Shown: positions 4,541-39,459, counted from the stretch's first letter. The stretch: 64,000 nt of DNA from Nannocystis sp. RBIL2 (GCF_026626745.1 NZ_JAPNJW010000002.1:1446151-1510150); one strand, 5' to 3'. The notes: a model not told the origin generated them from the letters alone. A program made the numbers and translations.

Positions 4541-5161
4541 TCGAGGCGAGCACCGGCTGCCGAGCAAATCGTCGGACCTCGCCCGGGGACGCGTCGAACG
4601 ACCCGGCCCCGGGCGGCGCGTTCGAGTCGTCCGCGCACGCCGCGAGGACGTCGTCGGACGTCGCTCGGGAGCGGGCGACGTCCGCCTGGACTGGCCTGGG
4701 CATGCCCCTCCAAGATCATATGGGCGCTTTCGCGCAAGCTGGCTCAGCCGTGTCCGAGGGGCCTTGATCCAGTCGCAGAGGATCAAGACGTCATGGACCT
4801 GCTGTGACAGCATGAGCAAGACCATCCGCGAGGCGCTCGCAGCGACCGCGACCTGGGCGCCGAGGCGGCGCCTGCAAGCCCAGGCGCCTCCCGAAGACTC
4901 CTGGTGGGGCGACTCCGGGGGTGTGCGCTGCGCCGCCGCAGGGGGCGCCTCGTTCACGGTTCGGTACGGCGGCCCGGTCGAGTCGAGGAAACCGGCGTAC
5001 CCCGAATGGGAGTAGCGGACCGCACAGGGTCGTTCGTTGTCCGCCAGAGTCCGCCTTCTCTCAGGCGGTGACGACGCTCCCCCGGCGAGCGCGCGAACCG
5101 CCTCGCAGCCACACGAGCCAGACGCGAGCCCGCGCGCAGCGGCTCAGTAGATTTCACGACC

Positions 5162-6915: not shown

Positions 6916-7340
6916 GCGGATGTCGCCTTAGCAGGGGCCGTGCCAAGCCGCCCAGGGGACGTGCAGGCGACGTGGACGCCGTTTGCAGCGCGGGTCGGAG
7001 AAGCCCCTGCGACGAGGCTGGAGCCCACCGGCGTCCTGGTCTGACGGGAGTGTCGTGCGCTCTCGCCGGGGCGAGCCACGCCAGCGACGGCCGGCGGGCG
7101 TCGGCCAGCATCGCGGCCGAGCGGGTCGAATCGCGGGCGCACATCTTCGAGGGAGCCGAGGCGAGCGGGCACCAGCGCTGGCGACTTCGGGATCTGCGCC
7201 CCCGCCGCGGACGGAGAGGCGGTCCCTCGCTGAGAGCGCGCAGGCGCCCTCGAGCACCTCGCTCCGGTGCAGGTGCGCCCCGCCCCATATTAAAAGCGCG
7301 GGCGCCAAAGCCCCCTGCAGCCGCGCGCAGCCTCGCCTTC

Positions 7341-8567
7341 ATGCCCGAGCCCACCGCCTCCTCGCGTCATCTGACCACGCTCCTCGTGCTCGCCTACCTC
7401 GGCTTTGTCAGCCTCGGGCTGCCCGACGCGGTGCTCGGAGTGGCCTGGCCGTCGCTGCGCGCCGCCTTCTCGCTGCCTCAGGCGGCACTCGGCGCGCCGC
7501 TGGCCGCTCTGGCGGTCTCGTACTTCCTCTCGGGGCTGGCGGCCGGCAGCCTCATGCGCCGCGCGGGGATCGGCGCGCTCCTGGCAGGCAGCACCGCGAT
7601 CGTCACGCTGGCGGTCGCGGGGTTCGCTTCGGCGCCGAGCTTCGGCGTCTTCCTCGCCGCGGCGTGCATCGGAGGCTTCGGCTCCGGCGCCATCGATGCC
7701 GCGCTCAACGCTTACGTCGCGCACAACTTCGGCGCGCGCCACATGACCTGGCTTCACGCGGCCTACAGCTTGGGCGCGGCGCTCGGGCCCGCCCTCATGA
7801 CGGCAGTCCTCGCGCGCGAGGCGGGGTGGCGCACGGGATACGCGGTCCTCGCCGGGGCGCTCGGTGTGCTCGCGGTCGCCTTCATCCTCACCCGCCGGCG
7901 CTGGGACGAAGGCGCCGCCGCCACTGCCCCGGACGCCGCCACCTCCACCGCGAGCGCCGAGCAAGACGCCGGGCCTCACGTGCTGCGCCGCCCTCGCGTG
8001 TGGCTGCAGCTCGGGTTCTTCTTCCTGTACACGGGCCTCGAGATGTCTGCGGGTCAATGGGCCTTCACCGTGCTCACCGAGGCGCGGGGTCTCGACGAAT
8101 CTCAGGCCGGTACCCAGGTCAGCCTCTACTGGGCGAGCCTGTTGGCGGGCCGCATCGTCCTCGGCTTCGTCGTCGAACGCGTGGGCCCGGTGCTCCTCGT
8201 GCGCCTCGCCACCGCGCTCGCCGTGCTCAGCGCGGCCGTGTTCGCTCTCCCCGGCCTGCCGCCGGTGGCGGCATTCACCGGCCTCGCGCTCCTCGGCTTC
8301 GCCCTGGCCCCCATGTACCCGGTTCTGATGGCCGAGACGCCGCGCCGCATGGGGTCGCACGCGGCCCACGCCGTGGGTTTTCAGGTGAGCGCCGCGACCG
8401 CGGGCATCGCCGCCATGCCCAGCCTCGCGGGCCTGCTCGGCCAACGGCTCGGGCTCGGCGCGATCCCGTGGTTCCTGGTGGGCACCGCCGTGGCGCTCGC
8501 GCTCCTGCACGAGACGCTCGTGGCGACCGTGGACCATCCAGGTCACCCTCGCTCATCGCCGCGATGA
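7341..8567 (+). CDS. MFS transporter.
   Basis: ATG at 7341 within the longer ORF 6972..8567. About 12 predicted hydrophobic helices. MFS signature-like 'GLAAGSLMRRAGIG'. Length 408 aa. Confidence 0.8.
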   Translation: MPEPTASSRHLTTLLVLAYLGFVSLGLPDAVLGVAWPSLRAAFSLPQAALGAPLAALAVSYFLSGLAAGSLMRRAGIGALLAGSTAIVTLAVAGFASAPSFGVFLAAACIGGFGSGAIDAALNAYVAHNFGARHMTWLHAAYSLGAALGPALMTAVLAREAGWRTGYAVLAGALGVLAVAFILTRRRWDEGAAATAPDAATSTASAEQDAGPHVLRRPRVWLQLGFFFLYTGLEMSAGQWAFTVLTEARGLDESQAGTQVSLYWASLLAGRIVLGFVVERVGPVLLVRLATALAVLSAAVFALPGLPPVAAFTGLALLGFALAPMYPVLMAETPRRMGSHAAHAVGFQVSAATAGIAAMPSLAGLLGQRLGLGAIPWFLVGTAVALALLHETLVATVDHPGHPRSSPR

Positions 8568-8726
8568 AGGCCAGGCGGCCGCAGCACGACACCGTGGGCG
8601 CGCTTCCTCGTGCCGCCCGCGCCCCAGTGCCGTCACCCTTTGCCAGGGCTTTGCCAGAACCGGCCACTTTGCCAGGGATGGATCGTAGCTGGTGGCGGGA
8701 AGTAGCCCTCGCAGCCGGTCAGCCGC

Positions 8727-10046
8727 TCATCGCTTCGGCGGCCTGTACCCCGACACGATCGTCCGCTTGCGCCCCTCGAGCTTGTCGAGCTGCGCCTCGA
8801 GCCCCTCGCGGCGGGCGTACGCGCGGGCCAAAATCAGCGCCACGTACTCGCCGAGCGAGTCGGCCGCGATCGTGGCCACCAGCGCCTGATCGTGGCGGAA
8901 GCGGATCACCGGCGCCGCGTTCGCCTCCGACTTCGCCCCCGTCGCCAGGAAGAACAGGTCGCCGGACGGATCGCTGCCGAGCGGGATGGCCTTCTTCGCC
9001 GGATCGAAGCCGCGCACGTCGTAGCGCCCGCGGCCGCTCGGCGGGTCGTCTGCCTCCTCCTCGTCGTCCTCGATCGTCCCCCTCATTTCGCGGAACAGCT
9101 GGCGCATGCGCGCCGGCGGCCCGAAGTCGCGCGATCCGAGCGCCGCGTGCGTCGCCAGCAATTGCCTCAATTCCTGCGGCAGCCGGGCGCTCACGTGATT
9201 CGCCAGCGCCTCGATCTCGCGCGCCCGCGCCGGTCCCTTCGCCGCCACCTCGGCCGGCGTCAGCTCCCACGCGGTCATCAGCGCCAGCGCCTCCGCCACC
9301 GTGTGCGGCAGCTGCTTCGGCAGCCTCGCCAGCACGATCCCCGGCGCCATCGCCTTCGGGATGAGCTTCGCCCGCAGCAGCAGCGCTCGCAGCCTGTCCG
9401 CCCCCGAGCCCGTGATCGTGGCAGTCGCCGCCACCAGCCGCGCCAGGGCCACCGGGGCCGCCGGCCCGCGGTTCGCCGGGAGCAGCGAGTTCCCGTCCGC
9501 CAGCACGCGGAACAGCAGCCACAGCCGCTCGTCGTTCCACTCGATCTTCATCAACCCGTCCGCGACCGCCTCGCCGTCCGCGTACGCCAGCAAGCGGCTC
9601 ACCGCCTCGCCCGCCAGCTTGAACCCGACCTCGTTGTTCGGGTTGTACTCGCCGAGCGCTTCGATCGCCGCTCGCGTCGTCCGCCGCAGCCCGCTGTCCA
9701 GCAGCGCCACCAGCAGCGGGATCGCCGACAACCCCAGCGTCGCCGCCGGCCGGAAGCCGTGCGGCACCCCGAGAGTCTCCGGATGGGCCGCGATCGCCCG
9801 CAGGAACGGCCCCGCGAGCCCCTCCAGCGTCGACGATCGATCGGCCCCCTCGACCTCGAGGAACACGTCGAACGCCTTGAACGCCACGCTGCCGGGCCGC
9901 GGCCAGCCCTCGCGGCACGCCGGCGCCGCGGCCAGCGCCTCCAGCTCGCGCATCAGCGATCCAGCCGCCGCCGCGTCCCCGCCCGCGGCCGCCGTCGCCA
10001 ACCCCGTCAATCGCGCCTCGAGCTCCGCGTACGTCCCGGTCTGCAT
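8727..10046 (-). CDS. Hypothetical protein whose C-terminus resembles the SMI1/KNR4 (SUKH) family. The N-terminal part is helical-repeat-like.
   Basis: The C-terminus 'IPLGSDPSGDLFFLATG...VIRFRHDQALVATIAADSLGEYVALIL' matches the SMI1/KNR4 pattern as recalled (G.DG.G...HD....A.SF.EFL). The start is uncertain: M at 10046, or upstream up to 10121. Confidence 0.55.
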   Translation of the reverse strand: MQTGTYAELEARLTGLATAAAGGDAAAAGSLMRELEALAAAPACREGWPRPGSVAFKAFDVFLEVEGADRSSTLEGLAGPFLRAIAAHPETLGVPHGFRPAATLGLSAIPLLVALLDSGLRRTTRAAIEALGEYNPNNEVGFKLAGEAVSRLLAYADGEAVADGLMKIEWNDERLWLLFRVLADGNSLLPANRGPAAPVALARLVAATATITGSGADRLRALLLRAKLIPKAMAPGIVLARLPKQLPHTVAEALALMTAWELTPAEVAAKGPARAREIEALANHVSARLPQELRQLLATHAALGSRDFGPPARMRQLFREMRGTIEDDEEEADDPPSGRGRYDVRGFDPAKKAIPLGSDPSGDLFFLATGAKSEANAAPVIRFRHDQALVATIAADSLGEYVALILARAYARREGLEAQLDKLEGRKRTIVSGYRPPKR

Positions 10047-11580: not shown

Positions 11581-12669
11581 GTGCTAAGCTCCTCGCGCAT
11601 GCTCGGCGACCGTCGACTCTCCCTCTTGTTCGCCTCGCTCCTCGCCGAGGTCACTGCGAGCGGGTGCGGAGCCGACGACCCCTGTACTTACGAACAAGTC
11701 ACTGCGATTGGCGCCAACCGGCTCGCGCCCTACATCGAGGACGGCAACCTCACCCTCGCCGAGTGCCAGGTCCTGTGCCCCATGAATCCTGCGCCGCCGC
11801 CTTCCGCTGGCCCTGACGAGCCGAGCAGCACGAGCTCGAGCACCTCGACCACCGGCGACACCCCCAGCGACACCACCACCGACCCCACCTCGACGACCGC
11901 CGCGACCACCGGCGCCGTCGACGACGACGCCGCCCCGCGCACGTCCACCGTGCTCGGTTGCGCCGCCATTCCCGCCAGCAAGAGCGACATCCGCTGCCAG
12001 TACGAGACCTCCTGCAAGGGCGGTCGGCGCCCCGCCGGCCTCTGCTCCGAGGGTCGCAGCGGCGGCGACGATCCCATCGCGCGGTGGTTCGCCGAGGTCG
12101 CGCACCTCGAGGCCGCCAGCGTCCCCGCCTTCGAGCGCCTCGCCGCCGAACTCCGCGAGCACGACGCCCCCGCCGCTATGATCGCCGCGGCCCTCCGCGC
12201 AGCGGTCGACGAGGCCCGCCACGCTGACCTCCTCGGCGCGATCGCCATCCGCCTCGGCGGTCGCCCCAGCCCCGTCGAGCTCGCGCCCACGCACGGCCGT
12301 TCGCTCGTCGAGCTGGCGATCGAGAACGCAGTCGAGGGCTGCGTCGGCGAGACCTGGGCCGCCCTGCTCGCCGCCCATCAGGCGCGAGCCGCCGAGGACC
12401 CCGAGATCCGCGCCTGCATGATCGAAGTCGCCGCCGACGAGGCCGCCCACGCCGACCTCGCCTGGGCCATCGACGCCTGGATCGCCCCCCTCCTGACCGC
12501 CGACGAACGGACCCGCCTTCTCACAGCCCGCTCGCAGGCCGCCCGCGCCCTCCGCGATCCGCCCCCCCGCGACGAAGCCCTCGAACGGCGCGCCGGCCTG
12601 CCCGCACCCGACCTCGCGCGCCGCCTCTGGAAAACCCTCGACCGCGAACTCTGGTCCGCGGCCGCCTGA
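11581..12669 (+). CDS. Ferritin-like domain lipoprotein.
   Basis: Lipobox-like 'AEVTASGCG'. Thr/Ser-rich linker. The C-terminal half has paired 'E..H' motifs ('DEARHADLLGA', 'DEAAHADLAWA') typical of ferritin-like di-iron folds. An alternative start lies at 11599. Confidence 0.65.
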   Translation: MLSSSRMLGDRRLSLLFASLLAEVTASGCGADDPCTYEQVTAIGANRLAPYIEDGNLTLAECQVLCPMNPAPPPSAGPDEPSSTSSSTSTTGDTPSDTTTDPTSTTAATTGAVDDDAAPRTSTVLGCAAIPASKSDIRCQYETSCKGGRRPAGLCSEGRSGGDDPIARWFAEVAHLEAASVPAFERLAAELREHDAPAAMIAAALRAAVDEARHADLLGAIAIRLGGRPSPVELAPTHGRSLVELAIENAVEGCVGETWAALLAAHQARAAEDPEIRACMIEVAADEAAHADLAWAIDAWIAPLLTADERTRLLTARSQAARALRDPPPRDEALERRAGLPAPDLARRLWKTLDRELWSAAA

Positions 12670-13832
12670 ACCCGGCACGCCACCGAGCTCCAATCACCGA
12701 ATCATGGCACCGCCCACGCGAGCCTCCGTCGCCGGAATCATCATCGTCGTCGCCCTGCCTCCGCGCGCGATGAGGCCTCACACGATCGTCTCCGGAAGAC
12801 GCACGCAGCCCGAATCGTGAATCGCGTCTGTCGGCGGGCCAGCCCTGACCGTCGAATAGACGCTCCTGTCGTCGTCACGCCCCGGACCCGCGCGCCCATG
12901 CGCGAGCGATTTTTTTTCGACCGCGCGCTGCGACAACGGATCCGTCCGCCTGTCATGCCCGCAGGAGGCCGGATCACGCCAGCGTCGTGCTCGACCGCGG
13001 CCTCCGCCTGCGCCACGTCGCGAGCCTGCGCGGCCGTCGACTGCATCGAGCGATACACCTGCACCTCGCTGCCTGACCTGCCGGAACCCCGTCATCCTCA
13101 TCGAGCACGAGCGACGAATCGCCCTGCCCGCTATCGCCATTCGTCATTCTGCGCTTGCCGATGCCCATTGCATGCAGCATCGCGTCAGCTCTCGTCGGCG
13201 CCCACCAGAATATCGGCGCATCGGGCATCCCGCGAGCACGATCGCCCCGATCCCCCATCACGACAATCACGGCACCGAAGCCGAGCACCGTCCCCGAAAA
13301 CATCATCGTCATCTCTCGCCACCCGAGTTCCCCGAGTCCTCACACCAATCGTCTCCGACAGACGCACGCCGCCCGGTTCGTGAAATGGCGTCTGTTCGGC
13401 GGCCAGCCCTGGCCGTCGAACAGACGCCTCGCGCTCTCCGCCAGGCAGCCTCTGCATCGAAGCCCACGACGGCGTGCGGGCCTCTCACGGCTGCAGCCGT
13501 GCCAGGGGTCCGGGGAAGCGGCGGCCGCGAATTAGAGGCGAGATGGGCGCGAGGAACGAGTGTCCATCTCGCCGGTTAACTCGCGGCCGCCGCTTCCCCG
13601 GACCCCCCGCGAGGCGCAGTCGGCAATATGCTGACCGCCGAGCCCCCCGCGCAGAATCCCTCACCCATTCACGAGCGCGACAGCGCCCCGACGATCGGGC
13701 CTTCCGCCCCCAATCGCCGACCCTCCGTGTCCCGCCACGCGCGCGATCTTGCCCACGGTCACCTGTCCGCCCGCAAACCACACGCCAGGGCGGCCGTGGT
13801 ACCTTGGGCGGCCCCGCTCGCGGCCCACGCCC

Positions 13833-16800
13833 ATGCCCGAAACCGCCGTCGCGCCCAAGCGCCAGCCCTCGCCTCACGATCTGCCTTGCCCGCTGCCGCC
13901 CGTGGCTCATGGAGAGCCGCCCGAGCTCGGGGCGTTTCGCGCCAAGCCCAGCGACGACGCCTTCTTGAAGCTGCGACGGGCCTTCCGCGAGGCCGAGAAC
14001 TGGAGCGCCCTCGCCACCTTGCTCGTCGTGCACGCTGCAGCGATCAGTGGCCCGCCGAAGGTCGCCGAGCTGTGCGTCCAGGCCTACGAGCTCTGGTACG
14101 ACCGCGTCAAGGACAAGCCCCAGGCCGCCTACGCCCTCGTGCGCGCCCTCCAGGCCGAGCCGCACAACAGCCGCGCCTACGAGCAACTGCGCAAGGTCTA
14201 CGGCGAGCTCGGCAGCCTCGACGAGCTTGCCACCTTGCTCAAGTTCCGCCTCGACCACCTGCGGCGGCACGATCGGGGCGCGGTCCCTGGCGCGCTCGTC
14301 GAGCTCGGCAAGGTCGACGAGCAGCGCTGTCAGGTCGACGAGGCCATCGCTTGCTACAGGGCCGCGCTCGAGATCAACCCCCAGGAGCGCGACGCCAGCG
14401 ATCAGCTCATCCGGCTTCATCTCCAGGCTGGCGCCTGGCTGCGCGTCATCGATCTGATCAACGCCGAGCTCGCGCGCACCGACAACGTCCGCGAGCGCGA
14501 CCGCTTCGCCGCCCTTCACCTCCGCCTCGCGCGGATCGAGGCCGAGCAGCTCGAGAACATCCCCTCCGCCGCGCTCCACCTGCAGGCCGCGCTCAAGGCC
14601 AACCCTGACGACGTCGCCGCCCTGCGGGCCTTCGGCGCCCTCTACCTCGGCAGCGGCAAGGCCAGCGACGAGGGCCTGCAGAAGGCCGCCGACGTGTTCT
14701 TCCGCGCCGCCAAGCTCGCGCGCAGCCAGGGCGACGACAAGATCGCCTACAGCCTGCTGCGCCGGGCCATGAGCCTGCGTCCCGACCATCACGAGGCCGG
14801 CAACGCCCTCGCCGAGCTGTTGATGGCGCAGGAGAAGTGGATGGAGCTCGACGACCTCTACGGGGCGTGGATCGGCTATGTCACCGAGGCCGACAGCTAC
14901 GGCCTGTGGCTGTCGCGCGGCGAGCTGCTCGAGACTCGCCTCGCCCGCCGCGAGGAGGCCCGCGCCTGCTACGAGCAGGCCTCGCGGCTCGAGCGGCCCG
15001 GCGGCGACGCCTGGCTGCGCCTCGAGGCCTTGCTGGTCGAGCTCGGCGACAACCACGGCCTCGTCAGCCTGTACGAGCGCTGGTCCGAGCAGGACCCCGG
15101 CGGTCTGCCGACCGACAAGCTGCTGTGGGCCGCCCGCGTCGCCCGCGAGGACCTCGGCGACGAGGAGCGGGCCGCGGTCAGCTTCTACCGCGTGCTCGAG
15201 CGCGAGCCCTTCAATCACGAGGCCTTCGAGGGCTACAAGGAGCACTGGCGGCGCAAGAACAACTGGTCGCACCTCGCCGGCCTCATCCTCTACCAGGGCG
15301 ACCAGGCCCTGCAGATGGGCGGCGGCCCGGACAGCCCGCTCGCTCGCTCCGAGTTCGCCGAGCACTTCGTCGAGCTGGCCGAGATCTACGAGCGCCGCCT
15401 CGGCGACCTCGCCGGCGCCCTCGACGCCTGGAACCGGCTCGCCCTCGCCTACCCCAACGACTGGCGCCCGCGCGACCAGATCGCCCGCATCGACAAGCGC
15501 GCGCGCATGCTCGACGCCAACCTCGCCACCCTCGAGGCCGAGCTGCAGCGCACCGTCGATCCGCAGCGCCGCTTCGAGGTGTTGCGCCGGCTGTCGCAGG
15601 CCCACCGCGAGCGCATGACCGACCCCCAGCGCACCATCGTCCTGCTGCAGGAGATGCTGGCGCTCGCGCCCGGCCACGAGGGGGCCCTGCGCGCGCTCGC
15701 CGAGATGTACGAACGGACAGGTGCTTACGACCAGGTCATCGACCTGCTGCGGCGCCAGCACGACGTCACCCGCAGCATCTCGCAGCGCGTGGTCCTGCTG
15801 CGGCGCATGGCCGAGCTGTGGCAGCACGAGCTGCACAGCCCGCGCGAGGCGCTGTGGGCCTGCGAGCAGATCCTCGGCTACAGCCCGTCGGACATGGACG
15901 CGGTCCACCGCATGCAGGGCTTGTGCGCCGAGCTCGGCGACGCCGGCGGCGAGTACGAGGCGCTGTCGCGCGAGCTCGGCCTCGTCGGAGACCCGGCCCA
16001 GCGCACCCGCATCATCCGGCGCATGGCCGATGTCGCCGACCGCAAGCTGCAGGACCCGCAGCGCTCGGCCCAGGCGTGGACGCAGCTGCAGGCCGGCGAC
16101 CCGCACAACCTCGAGGTCACCGACAAGCTGATCGCCGCCTACGAGGCGCTCGGCAACCGCGAGGAGCTCGCCAACCTGCTCGGCAAGGCCGCCAGCTCGG
16201 CCCGCACCCCGCCGATCCGCCAGCTCGACTATCTCATGCGCCTGGGCCACGTCGCCGAGTCGTCGCTCGGCGACGCCGACCTGGCCTGCTCGGCCTTCGA
16301 GCGCGCGCTGCGGATCCACCGCGACCACCGCGGCGCCACCGAGGCGCTGACCCGCCTCTACCGCAACCTCGGCAGCTGGCACGGCCTGGCCGCCTCGCTC
16401 GGCACCCTGCAGGACATGGCCGACAGCGACGAGGAGGCGCTCGGCATCGGCTGGGAGCGCGCCGAGGTCCTGGCCGACCGGCTCGACAACCCGGCCGCCG
16501 CCATCCGCGTGCTCGAGCAGCTCAGCTCGAACGCCGCCGTCGGCAACCGCGACGTCGCCCTCAAGCTGCTCGAGCTGTACGAGCGCGCCGGCCAGTTCGA
16601 CCGCCTGATCCGCCACGCCGAGATCCTCCTGCTCTCGGCGCTCGAGACCGACGAGCGGCGCGAGCTGTTCTCGCTGGTCGCCCGCACCTACGTCGTCAAC
16701 CTCAACGCCCCGCACAAGGCCATCGCCGCCTTCCAGCGGTTCATGCGCGAGGAGCCCGACGACGGCGAGGGCCTCAAGATCCTCGGCGAGCTGCAGGCGC

Positions 16801-25703: not shown

Positions 25704-25960
25704 CCTGTCCCACAGACCAGGTCCGCCCGCGCGACCGCCACCGCGGGCCGGACCTGTCCCACCGGCCAGGTCCGGCCGCCCCGGGCGGACGCGCGAACGG
25801 CTCCGTGGCCAGAACCTGCCCCATCGGCCAGGTCCGGCCGGACCGGCCGGACGACCGCGCCGCGAGCGAGCAGAGCCGCCCTCGCGCGGCTCCCGGCGGC
25901 CCGTTCGCCCGCCGTCCGACCAGCGTCGCGCCGCCGCCCCGGACCGGCTACCATCCCCGC

Positions 25961-38885: not shown

Positions 38886-39459
38886 CGGGATCGTCTTCCG
38901 CGATCGCTCCTGCGATCTGCGGAATGGCGGCCCGACCACTCCAGAACCTGTGACGGACCTCCCGCCACACCCTACGCGGATACGCACCCGCGTAGTCCGT
39001 AGGTACCGCACCAAGGCTCAGCATGCAAGCGGCTTTGCGACTCACACGAGCCAAGCGCCCCTGGCGCCCCGCCCAGGCCCCACTCGCTGGATTGGATTAC
39101 CCGAATGTCATCTTCGGATCGAGGCCGTGGCGCTCGCGCAGGCGGCTCCACGGCCCCACGTCGTCGCTCGCGGCGCCGCTCCGCGCCCCCGGGGCCCGCG
39201 CCGGCCGCGAGGCATCGCCGGCCGCCCCTGTCAGGCGGCGCAGCCCCCGCGGCCCCTGGGATAGCCTTGCGGACCGCAGGATCGGGGCCTGGAGCTCATC
39301 GAGGACCTCGGCACGCCGGCGCCCCCGCGGCCTCGACGGACCCTCCAGGGACGAACGCGAGGTCATTGTTCCCCGCGCGGCTCGAAGAGCGCTCGCGGCT
39401 GCGGTGGACCGGCCGCGAGCCCTCGGCGCAGGCGTCCGGGCACGGCCTGCTCTGCGGAA

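Follow-up and report, generated by a model that had tools for sequence, protein, structure and literature searches.

A hairpin-rich repeat pair between a ferritin-like gene and a giant TPR gene of Nannocystis: a conserved block, probably a structured RNA element, and its apparently decaying partial duplicate

Nannocystis sp. RBIL2 carries, between a ferritin-like gene and a giant TPR gene, two copies of a hairpin-rich repeat that are named here copy A (12678-12865) and copy B (13243-13429). Positions are counted in a 64,000-nucleotide stretch of one strand (GCF_026626745.1 NZ_JAPNJW010000002.1:1446151-1510150), hereafter the window, whose GC content is 72%, and both copies lie in a gap of 1163 nt (12670-13832). 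The locus was compared across five genomes, namely the window and the N. pusilla-group relatives L001, L002 (= L020/L090), L005 and L098. Substitution rates show that the core of copy B and the sequence that follows it, a block of ~295 nt (13346 to ~13640), are under purifying selection. They also show that copy A is without purifying selection and drifts at about the synonymous rate, with its long hairpin eroding. Alignment shows copy A to be a partial duplicate, corresponding to the 5' third of this block. The explanation favoured here, to which we give somewhat more than an even chance, is that copy B is part of a structured RNA element of the + strand and that copy A is its decaying duplicate.

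The duplication itself, proposed in the initial annotation, is real and clearly exceeds what shuffled controls produce. Local alignment of the two intervals delimited there (12786-12880 and 13338-13432) gave a score of 99 versus 16.2 +/- 2.8 for 1000 dinucleotide shuffles (z = 29), the next-best score against 190-nt tiles elsewhere in the window was 30, and the two copies matched each other by blastn with E = 3e-21. These intervals are homologous but out of register by ~10 nt, the homologous cores being 12785-12863 and 13348-13427 on the + strand. Their identity is ~86% over 80 aligned columns, including three one-base indels, and not the ~90% originally given; it is 84% when 12776-12865 is aligned to 13338-13429. 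Weaker similarity extends upstream to 12678 and 13243 (~76% over 190 nt by blastn, core included) and the similarity of A and B ends exactly after the last AGACGC, giving a duplicated segment of ~190 nt. Each copy contains an ordered series of four short motifs, CGTCT, AGACGC, GCGTCT and AGACGC, located at 12787, 12797, 12824 and 12858 in copy A and at 13350, 13360, 13388 and 13422 in copy B. On either strand of the 64 kb, a regular expression for the quartet has no match beyond these two, and the chance expectation of the quartet pattern searches was 0.03 and 0.00 matches.

The gap is regarded as non-coding because a third-codon-position GC (GC3) signal is absent across it and because one-base indels distinguish copies A and B and their orthologs. 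Small minus-strand open reading frames (on the B side one of 112 residues beginning MTMMFSGTV, 12974-13312; on the A side one of 16 codons) were rejected: they have no GC3 signal, and their stops and frames are inconsistent among A, B and the orthologs. A tandem-repeat origin was also discarded, TRF reporting nothing relevant.

The B block is continuous in the alignment of orthologs. Counting substitutions only, identity among orthologs is 94% in the B core (13346-13429), 90% in the linker that follows (13430-13487) and 96% in a giant near-perfect hairpin of ~60 bp that closes the block (13488-13622), the block itself continuing to ~13640. Outside the block it is 81% in the upstream flank and 74% in the downstream flank, and at third codon positions of the neighbouring genes it is 87-92%. 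The upstream flank is the upstream part of copy B (13243-13337, + strand), which is poorly conserved except for ACGACAATCACGGCACCGA. In the linker, a small GCCCAC/GTGCGGGC hairpin is predicted.

The B core is predicted to fold into three hairpins. H1 pairs 13350-13354 with 13360-13364 (CGTCT/AGACG, 5-nt loop), a central CACG/CGTG hairpin pairs 13365-13368 with 13379-13382 within an invariant central block, and H2 (13387-13428) forms a stem of 19-20 bp with a GCCC loop and arms that are 95% complementary. The hexamers are the bases of the H1 and H2 stems. Copy B folds at -48.8 to -50.5 kcal/mol (z = -5.3), and the same three-hairpin fold was obtained for all five B cores (-47 to -51 kcal/mol). 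Across the five genomes only one of the ~42 columns of H2 in copy B varies, and the change turns a U-A pair into U.G. In the same way, the H1 stem of copy B is retained despite replacement of its loop (CCGAC, CCGTC, CAATC) and a register shift. The giant hairpin, which is the longest inverted repeat of the window, folds at -120.8 kcal/mol (z = -13.7) and the whole block at -200.9 kcal/mol (z = -9.7). Selection on a structure, as first suggested for both copies, seems likely for copy B, with its low z score and near-invariant H2, but not for copy A, which evolves at about the synonymous rate.

Base-pair changes bear on the nature of this structure. In L098 the inner stem of the giant hairpin reads GGGGGG/CCCCCC versus GGCGAG/CTCGCC elsewhere and contains two compensatory pairs, C-G to G-C and A-U to G-C; one-sided, pair-preserving changes of the G.U type are seen at four pairs of this hairpin. 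The core pairs were examined in an eight-copy alignment from which L098 was excluded: 95% of the cells are paired, seven pairs show one-sided wobble changes, and four of the 26 have broken cells, mostly in A-type copies. An enclosing helix around H1 (CACGAT/ATCGTG) was rejected, as it is paired in 77% of the cells and four of its six pairs are broken in one to three of the eight copies. The central CACG/CGTG hairpin was preferred to it; this hairpin never varies and is hence uninformative. The giant hairpins are more stable as + than as - strand RNA by 6-21 kcal/mol in four of four genomes, and the B cores by 0.8-5.3 kcal/mol in five of five. Given this stability and the G.U pairs, which are valid only on the + strand, a + strand RNA structure is pointed to. 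The + strand is also the sense strand of all the genes that flank the B block.

Copy A presents a different picture. Its core (12785-12865, + strand) contains the same parts, namely H1 (a 5-bp stem, 12787-12791 with 12797-12801), the central CACG/CGTG pairs (12802-12805 with 12816-12819) and H2 (12824-12863), whose stem is imperfect; across copies A and B the H2 stem measures 17-19 bp. In the window, copy A retains the three-hairpin fold, at -29 to -32 kcal/mol, which is no better than shuffles (z = -0.97). Among its orthologs this fold is lost and the energies are -19 to -32 kcal/mol, compared with -47 to -51 kcal/mol for B. Variable core columns over the five genomes number 23 of 81 for A and 7 of 81 for B (Fisher p = 0.002). 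For the A core this amounts to a fraction of 0.30 (23-24/81), with third codon positions of the adjacent gene at 0.24. In H2 of the A-type copies, 12 of ~40 columns vary, with mismatches at the stem base in L001, L002, L005 and L098. The upstream part of copy A (12678-12775, + strand), which is weakly similar to 13243-13337 and contains a AATCAYGGCACC motif, is rich in indels among orthologs, one of 18 nt among them; L005 has a half-copy insertion of 48 nt there, and L002 has tandem repeats of 52 nt.

The ordered hexamers, said to have been kept even where the surrounding bases differ, are present in both window copies but vary in orthologs, where ATACGC, GAACGC, GGACGC, GCGTCG, GAGTCT, AGACGT, CGACGT, AAACGT and AGGCGC are found. 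They seem to be kept amid differing flanks largely because the duplication is fairly young, copy B is constrained and the flanks are prone to indels. A protein-binding array, the other possibility raised at the outset, is not supported: the hexamers are not kept in orthologs and the best-conserved stretch is ACGCACGCNGCCCGNNTCGTG, which lies between the hairpins. This central, non-palindromic block is invariant in nine of ten full copies and in the L005 half-copy.

How such an arrangement might work can be proposed as follows. The B block would act in cis as + strand RNA, forming its structure in the transcript that runs between the upstream gene and the giant TPR gene. There it might serve as a 3'-end barrier, as a terminator lacking a U-tract or as a site processed by a double-strand-specific RNase. 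Copy A would be passively transcribed within the 3' untranslated region (UTR) of the ferritin-like gene, in a transcript ending at a terminator-like site with a T8 tract, and would itself have little function, if any. On this view the duplicate simply inherited the four matching hexamers as the stem bases of H1 and H2.

Several points weigh against the favoured explanation. The two compensatory pairs both come from a single genome, L098, and lie 2 nt apart, so that one template-switch event in a quasi-palindrome could have yielded both without selection. None of the 26 core pairs shows a two-sided change, and the core structure rests on conservation and on wobble-type changes. Only five closely related genomes are compared, the rate contrasts depend on few events, and local recombination between strains could mimic conservation. 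Moreover, fixed differences between A-type and B-type copies are fewer in the core (4 of 81 columns) than in the upstream part (~13 of 95, a rough estimate that was not computed), which could mean earlier constraint on copy A or its gene conversion. The role suggested for the B block as barrier, terminator or processing site is conjectural. Finally, the public scans described below needed an exact match of 18 or 23 bases and would have missed copies diverged like copy A of L098.

Related to this explanation is the more specific idea that the ~295-nt block is an undescribed structured RNA of the N. pusilla group, for instance an RNase III-processed leader or insulator of the TPR gene or a stand-alone non-coding RNA, and that copy A is a recent partial pseudogene of it. 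We hold this only tentatively, as a possibility that is on the whole unlikely.

Alternatively, both copies may be functional cis RNA elements, such as 3'-UTR stabilisers or RNase processing sites after the ferritin-like and the cysteine-rich gene (the latter is found between the copies in relatives, as described below), copy A being the less constrained of the two. On the sense strand, each copy does follow a stop codon by ~100-300 nt and precede a hairpin, and copy A of the window still folds into three hairpins; the seemingly lower number of fixed A/B differences in the core than in the upstream part, with the upstream figure a rough one, would also fit. The substitution rate of the A core, the variation and stem-base mismatches of its H2 and folds of the A orthologs that are 15-30 kcal/mol weaker than those of B speak against it, and we regard function in both copies as quite unlikely.

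The initial annotation interpreted copy A together with the downstream hairpin and T8 tract as a small RNA (sRNA) gene of ~130 nt with an intrinsic terminator. In a broader form, copy A would be an independent sRNA gene of ~130-180 nt ending at the hairpin and T8, and copy B a paralogous sRNA. The hairpin (12889-12904) and the T8 (12910-12917) were confirmed, the core that precedes them is non-coding and hairpin-rich, the T-run is kept in all orthologs and the wobble changes favour the + strand. Nevertheless, the folding check advanced for this sRNA turned out negative, copy A together with the terminator being no better than shuffles (z = -0.69), and no promoter was found. No sigma-70-like site occurs in 12500-14000, other promoter types being outside that scan. 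A sigma-54-like TGGCAC-N5-ACGC is located upstream of copy A at 12704-12718, but the A copies of L001 and L002 have lost its GG and most B copies lack the -12 GC; with TGGCAC-N5-..GC intact in only three of five A copies and one of five B copies, it was rejected as a promoter. In addition, the A core changes about as fast as synonymous sites and loses its fold in orthologs, N. bainbridge has the terminator module but not the core, copy B lacks a T-run and is followed by 200 further conserved bases, and no Rfam model matches. The ~130-nt sRNA is therefore not upheld, and an independent sRNA gene in either form is improbable.

Another reading takes A and B as att-like or cassette-boundary repeats at the junctions of a small integrated or recombining gene islet. 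They are indeed direct repeats, both with imperfect palindromes, around a region of variable gene content: the number of genes between them is zero in the window, one in L005 and L098 and two in L002, while L001 has the cysteine-rich gene and its own low-GC insert, the inserts of L001 and L002 being strain-specific. The cysteine-rich gene of N. bainbridge also lies at another locus. On the other hand, the called genes and their precomputed Pfam hits showed no integrase or recombinase in or beside the islet. The window still has both copies and the gene promoter, so the segment lost does not reach from one repeat to the other, and the low-GC inserts lie inside the islet and not at the repeat edges. 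The attC signature RYYYAAC ... GTTRRRY is not found in that order, and the 200 conserved bases after copy B would stay unexplained. A tRNA or tmRNA remnant as att site was rejected as well, since ARAGORN finds no tRNA or tmRNA in the 64 kb. Such junction repeats appear distinctly improbable.

Least probable of all, and very unlikely in our view, is an operator whose half-sites, the four hexamers, would bind a transcription factor, dimeric or tetrameric, with joint control over the genes that follow each copy. In its favour, both copies show one hexamer four times with alternating orientation, the centre-to-centre distance in the 15-bp palindrome CGTCT-N5-AGACG is close to one helical turn, and in relatives each copy lies upstream of a gene (the cysteine-rich gene and the TPR gene). 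Against it, half-sites 2, 3 and 4 vary in orthologs while the non-palindromic block between is the invariant part, the second pair, 28 nt apart, is the base of a continuous 19-bp stem, the one-sided changes give G.U pairs that matter to an RNA and not to a protein site, a terminator-like site separates copy A from its would-be target gene, the conservation of B spans 295 nt including the 60-bp hairpin, far beyond the needs of an operator, and the quartet is found nowhere else in the window.

The terminator-like hairpin itself (CGCGC/GCGCG, 5-6 bp, + strand) is followed by its T8 after a spacing of 5 nt (AGCGA). It is the sole terminator-like site in 12500-14000, accepted by the scanner as borderline, and its fold is weak, at -13.7 kcal/mol (z = +0.3 versus shuffles). 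Despite differing loops, the short stem and the T-run persist in L001, L002, L005, L098 and N. bainbridge L097. Homology to N. bainbridge sets in precisely where the A core stops, and the homologous sequence lies there upstream of the cysteine-rich gene, with no repeat before it. Because the hairpin and T-run are present there without the repeat, they form a separate module. They are probably the terminator of whichever gene lies upstream or else part of the control region of the cysteine-rich gene.

Next to it lies a promoter or leader module of the cysteine-rich gene (12915-13034, + strand; 95% identity in five genomes), which directly precedes this gene in L001, L002, L005, L098 and L097. 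It was also observed that the leader module (CTGCGACA...CCTGTCATGCCCGCAGGAGG, window 12921-13025) recurs in N. bainbridge L097 at 4821-4986 and 8723-8828. These matches precede two different genes, the first extending upstream over the hairpin and T-run, and the module may be a shared promoter or leader motif.

In the four N. pusilla-group relatives, copies A and B bracket the cysteine-rich gene, which is cleanly absent from the window. The gene is 780 bp long in relatives and encodes a secreted protein of 259 residues with four repeats of ~50 residues. The junction left by it is at 13035-13059: window 12670-13035 corresponds to L005 6841-7252 and window 13059-13832 to L005 8073-8845, the gene occupying L005 7268-8047. 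Low-GC (51-58%) strain-specific inserts of differing sequence were found between the cysteine-rich gene and copy B in L001 (~7300-8130) and L002 (7389-8204). With this variation, the interval between the two conserved genes looks like a small hotspot where genes are gained and lost. The insert of L002 encodes a protein of 202 residues with a HEAAH motif and no Pfam hit.

As for the neighbouring genes, the ferritin-like gene upstream (11581-12669, + strand) has Nannocystis ferritin-like proteins as best homologs, with protein identities of 96% in Nannocystis sp. ILAH1, 82-83% in N. pusilla and 69% in N. exedens. A unit of ~52 nt that takes in the stop-codon region of this gene is present in ~5 tandem copies in L002 (6042-6300); L001 has two and the window one. 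Downstream, the TPR gene (+ strand, ATG at 13833) encodes 3205 residues with TPR and one ARM-repeat Pfam hits. A search with the first 400 residues of this protein gave only four distant fragments, TPR words saturating the candidate list. The 140-nt region before its start codon is conserved even in N. exedens (85-89%) with a fold no different from shuffles (z = 0.0), and an inverted repeat is found within it (window 13735-13825, + strand; L003 8464-8551).

Both copies are present at the same locus in the four N. pusilla-group genomes, and L005 has in addition a tandem half-copy made of H1 and the central block. The element was missing by blastn, nhmmer and covariance model at the orthologous ferritin-TPR locus of N. 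exedens (L003, L004) and of the Logan relative L006, as it was at the N. bainbridge cysteine-rich-gene locus that was fetched (L097), whose genomic context is different. Over the window and ~80 kb of Nannocystis loci, nhmmer and the covariance model recovered only A, B and the L005 half-copy. The giant hairpin occurs once in all the fetched Nannocystis DNA and is absent from N. exedens and L006; gene callers placed no open reading frame over its orthologs. In 185,579 species genomes the invariant 18-base block ACGCACGCNGCCCGNNTCGTG was found in 85 stretches, only two of which extend beyond the word; these are copies A and B of N. pusilla Na p29. A metagenome scan with a 23-base pattern gave one distinct chance sequence, from a gut bacterium, and no true copy. 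As far as these sequence searches tell, the element is a two-copy, single-locus and lineage-restricted one, a local curiosity and not a new regulatory family.

A weak covariance-model match (22-27 bits; 23.7 in the window) was observed inside a gene of 439/464 residues, at window 9084-9167 on the - strand, and it is syntenic in five genomes (L098 1245-1325, L002 2467-2547, L005 3077-3157, L001 2608-2691). It was rejected as a further copy; it aligns poorly and probably matches by chance, its conservation being that of coding sequence.

Known RNA families offer little correspondence. At the gathering threshold, Rfam 15 returned for the whole window only the nhaA-I riboswitch (RF03057) at 38922-38972 on the - strand (51.6 bits, gathering score 37, E = 2.8e-7). 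At E <= 10, only generic microRNA-hairpin models were returned for 12600-13900, on H2 and the giant hairpin and far below their gathering scores; Hrs13, for instance, reached 14.8 bits with a cut-off of 52. No papers on small RNA in Nannocystis came up in a literature search. In the inverted-repeat survey, the second-longest local inverted repeat of the window was 25723-25800, with arms of 37 nt, 76% complementarity and a gap of 4 nt.

The element is most like extragenic palindromic hairpin elements without their defining multi-copy feature. Like REP, BIME and REPIN sequences, it is made of imperfect, GC-rich palindromes that lie shortly downstream of stop codons in presumably transcribed intergenic DNA; such palindromes can form stable RNA hairpins that protect the upstream mRNA, and the giant hairpin of the B block is of about the size of a REPIN structure. 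These families have tens to hundreds of copies per genome and are associated with RAYT transposases, whereas the core here exists as two copies at one locus, and no RAYT (Y1 transposase) gene was noted in the fetched Nannocystis loci, the only DNA to which this applies. Intrinsic terminators are also GC-rich sense-strand stem-loops downstream of a gene, and a T8 does follow copy A. However, neither H2, in A or B, nor the giant hairpin has a U-tract, and the T8 follows a different small hairpin, separable from the repeat, after a gap of 5 nt where 0-2 nt is canonical. In the same way, 3'-UTR-derived or stand-alone sRNAs share a length of ~100-200 nt, a non-coding and hairpin-rich nature and a terminator-like end after a coding gene; copy A differs from bacterial sRNAs in that it is not conserved above the neutral rate, no promoter was found for it and it has no Rfam match. 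A 6S-like reading was set aside.

Myxobacterial retron msr-msd RNAs of the Mx162/Ne144 type have small hairpins followed by a very long hairpin on the same strand. The present block, also in a myxobacterial host, resembles them in its small hairpins followed by a near-perfect hairpin of ~135 nt. The retron was rejected since the next open reading frame is that of the 3205-residue TPR protein, which has no reverse-transcriptase domain, and since no a1/a2 inverted repeat pairs the two ends of the block, which share only a CCGAC/GTCGG complementarity of 5 bp between 13338-13365 and 13615-13645. This complementarity does not co-vary in L005, where the loop is CAATC, and Rfam gave no retron match even at E = 10. 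Integron attC sites are comparable as direct repeats with imperfect palindromes that flank one gene present or absent according to strain; they differ in that the repeats play no part in the gene loss seen in the window. H2 reads GTTCGGC...GTCGAAC, in the wrong order and with non-consensus bases, and no integrase is found among the called genes, so that an attC site was rejected too.

The element matters little beyond the Nannocystis lineage, with two copies at one locus of which copy A is apparently decaying. The conserved, hairpin-rich block of 295 nt with its 60-bp stem is a more interesting object than copy A. In addition, the pair provides an example of how a young duplication combined with constraint on one copy can mimic motifs that are kept against a diverged background.

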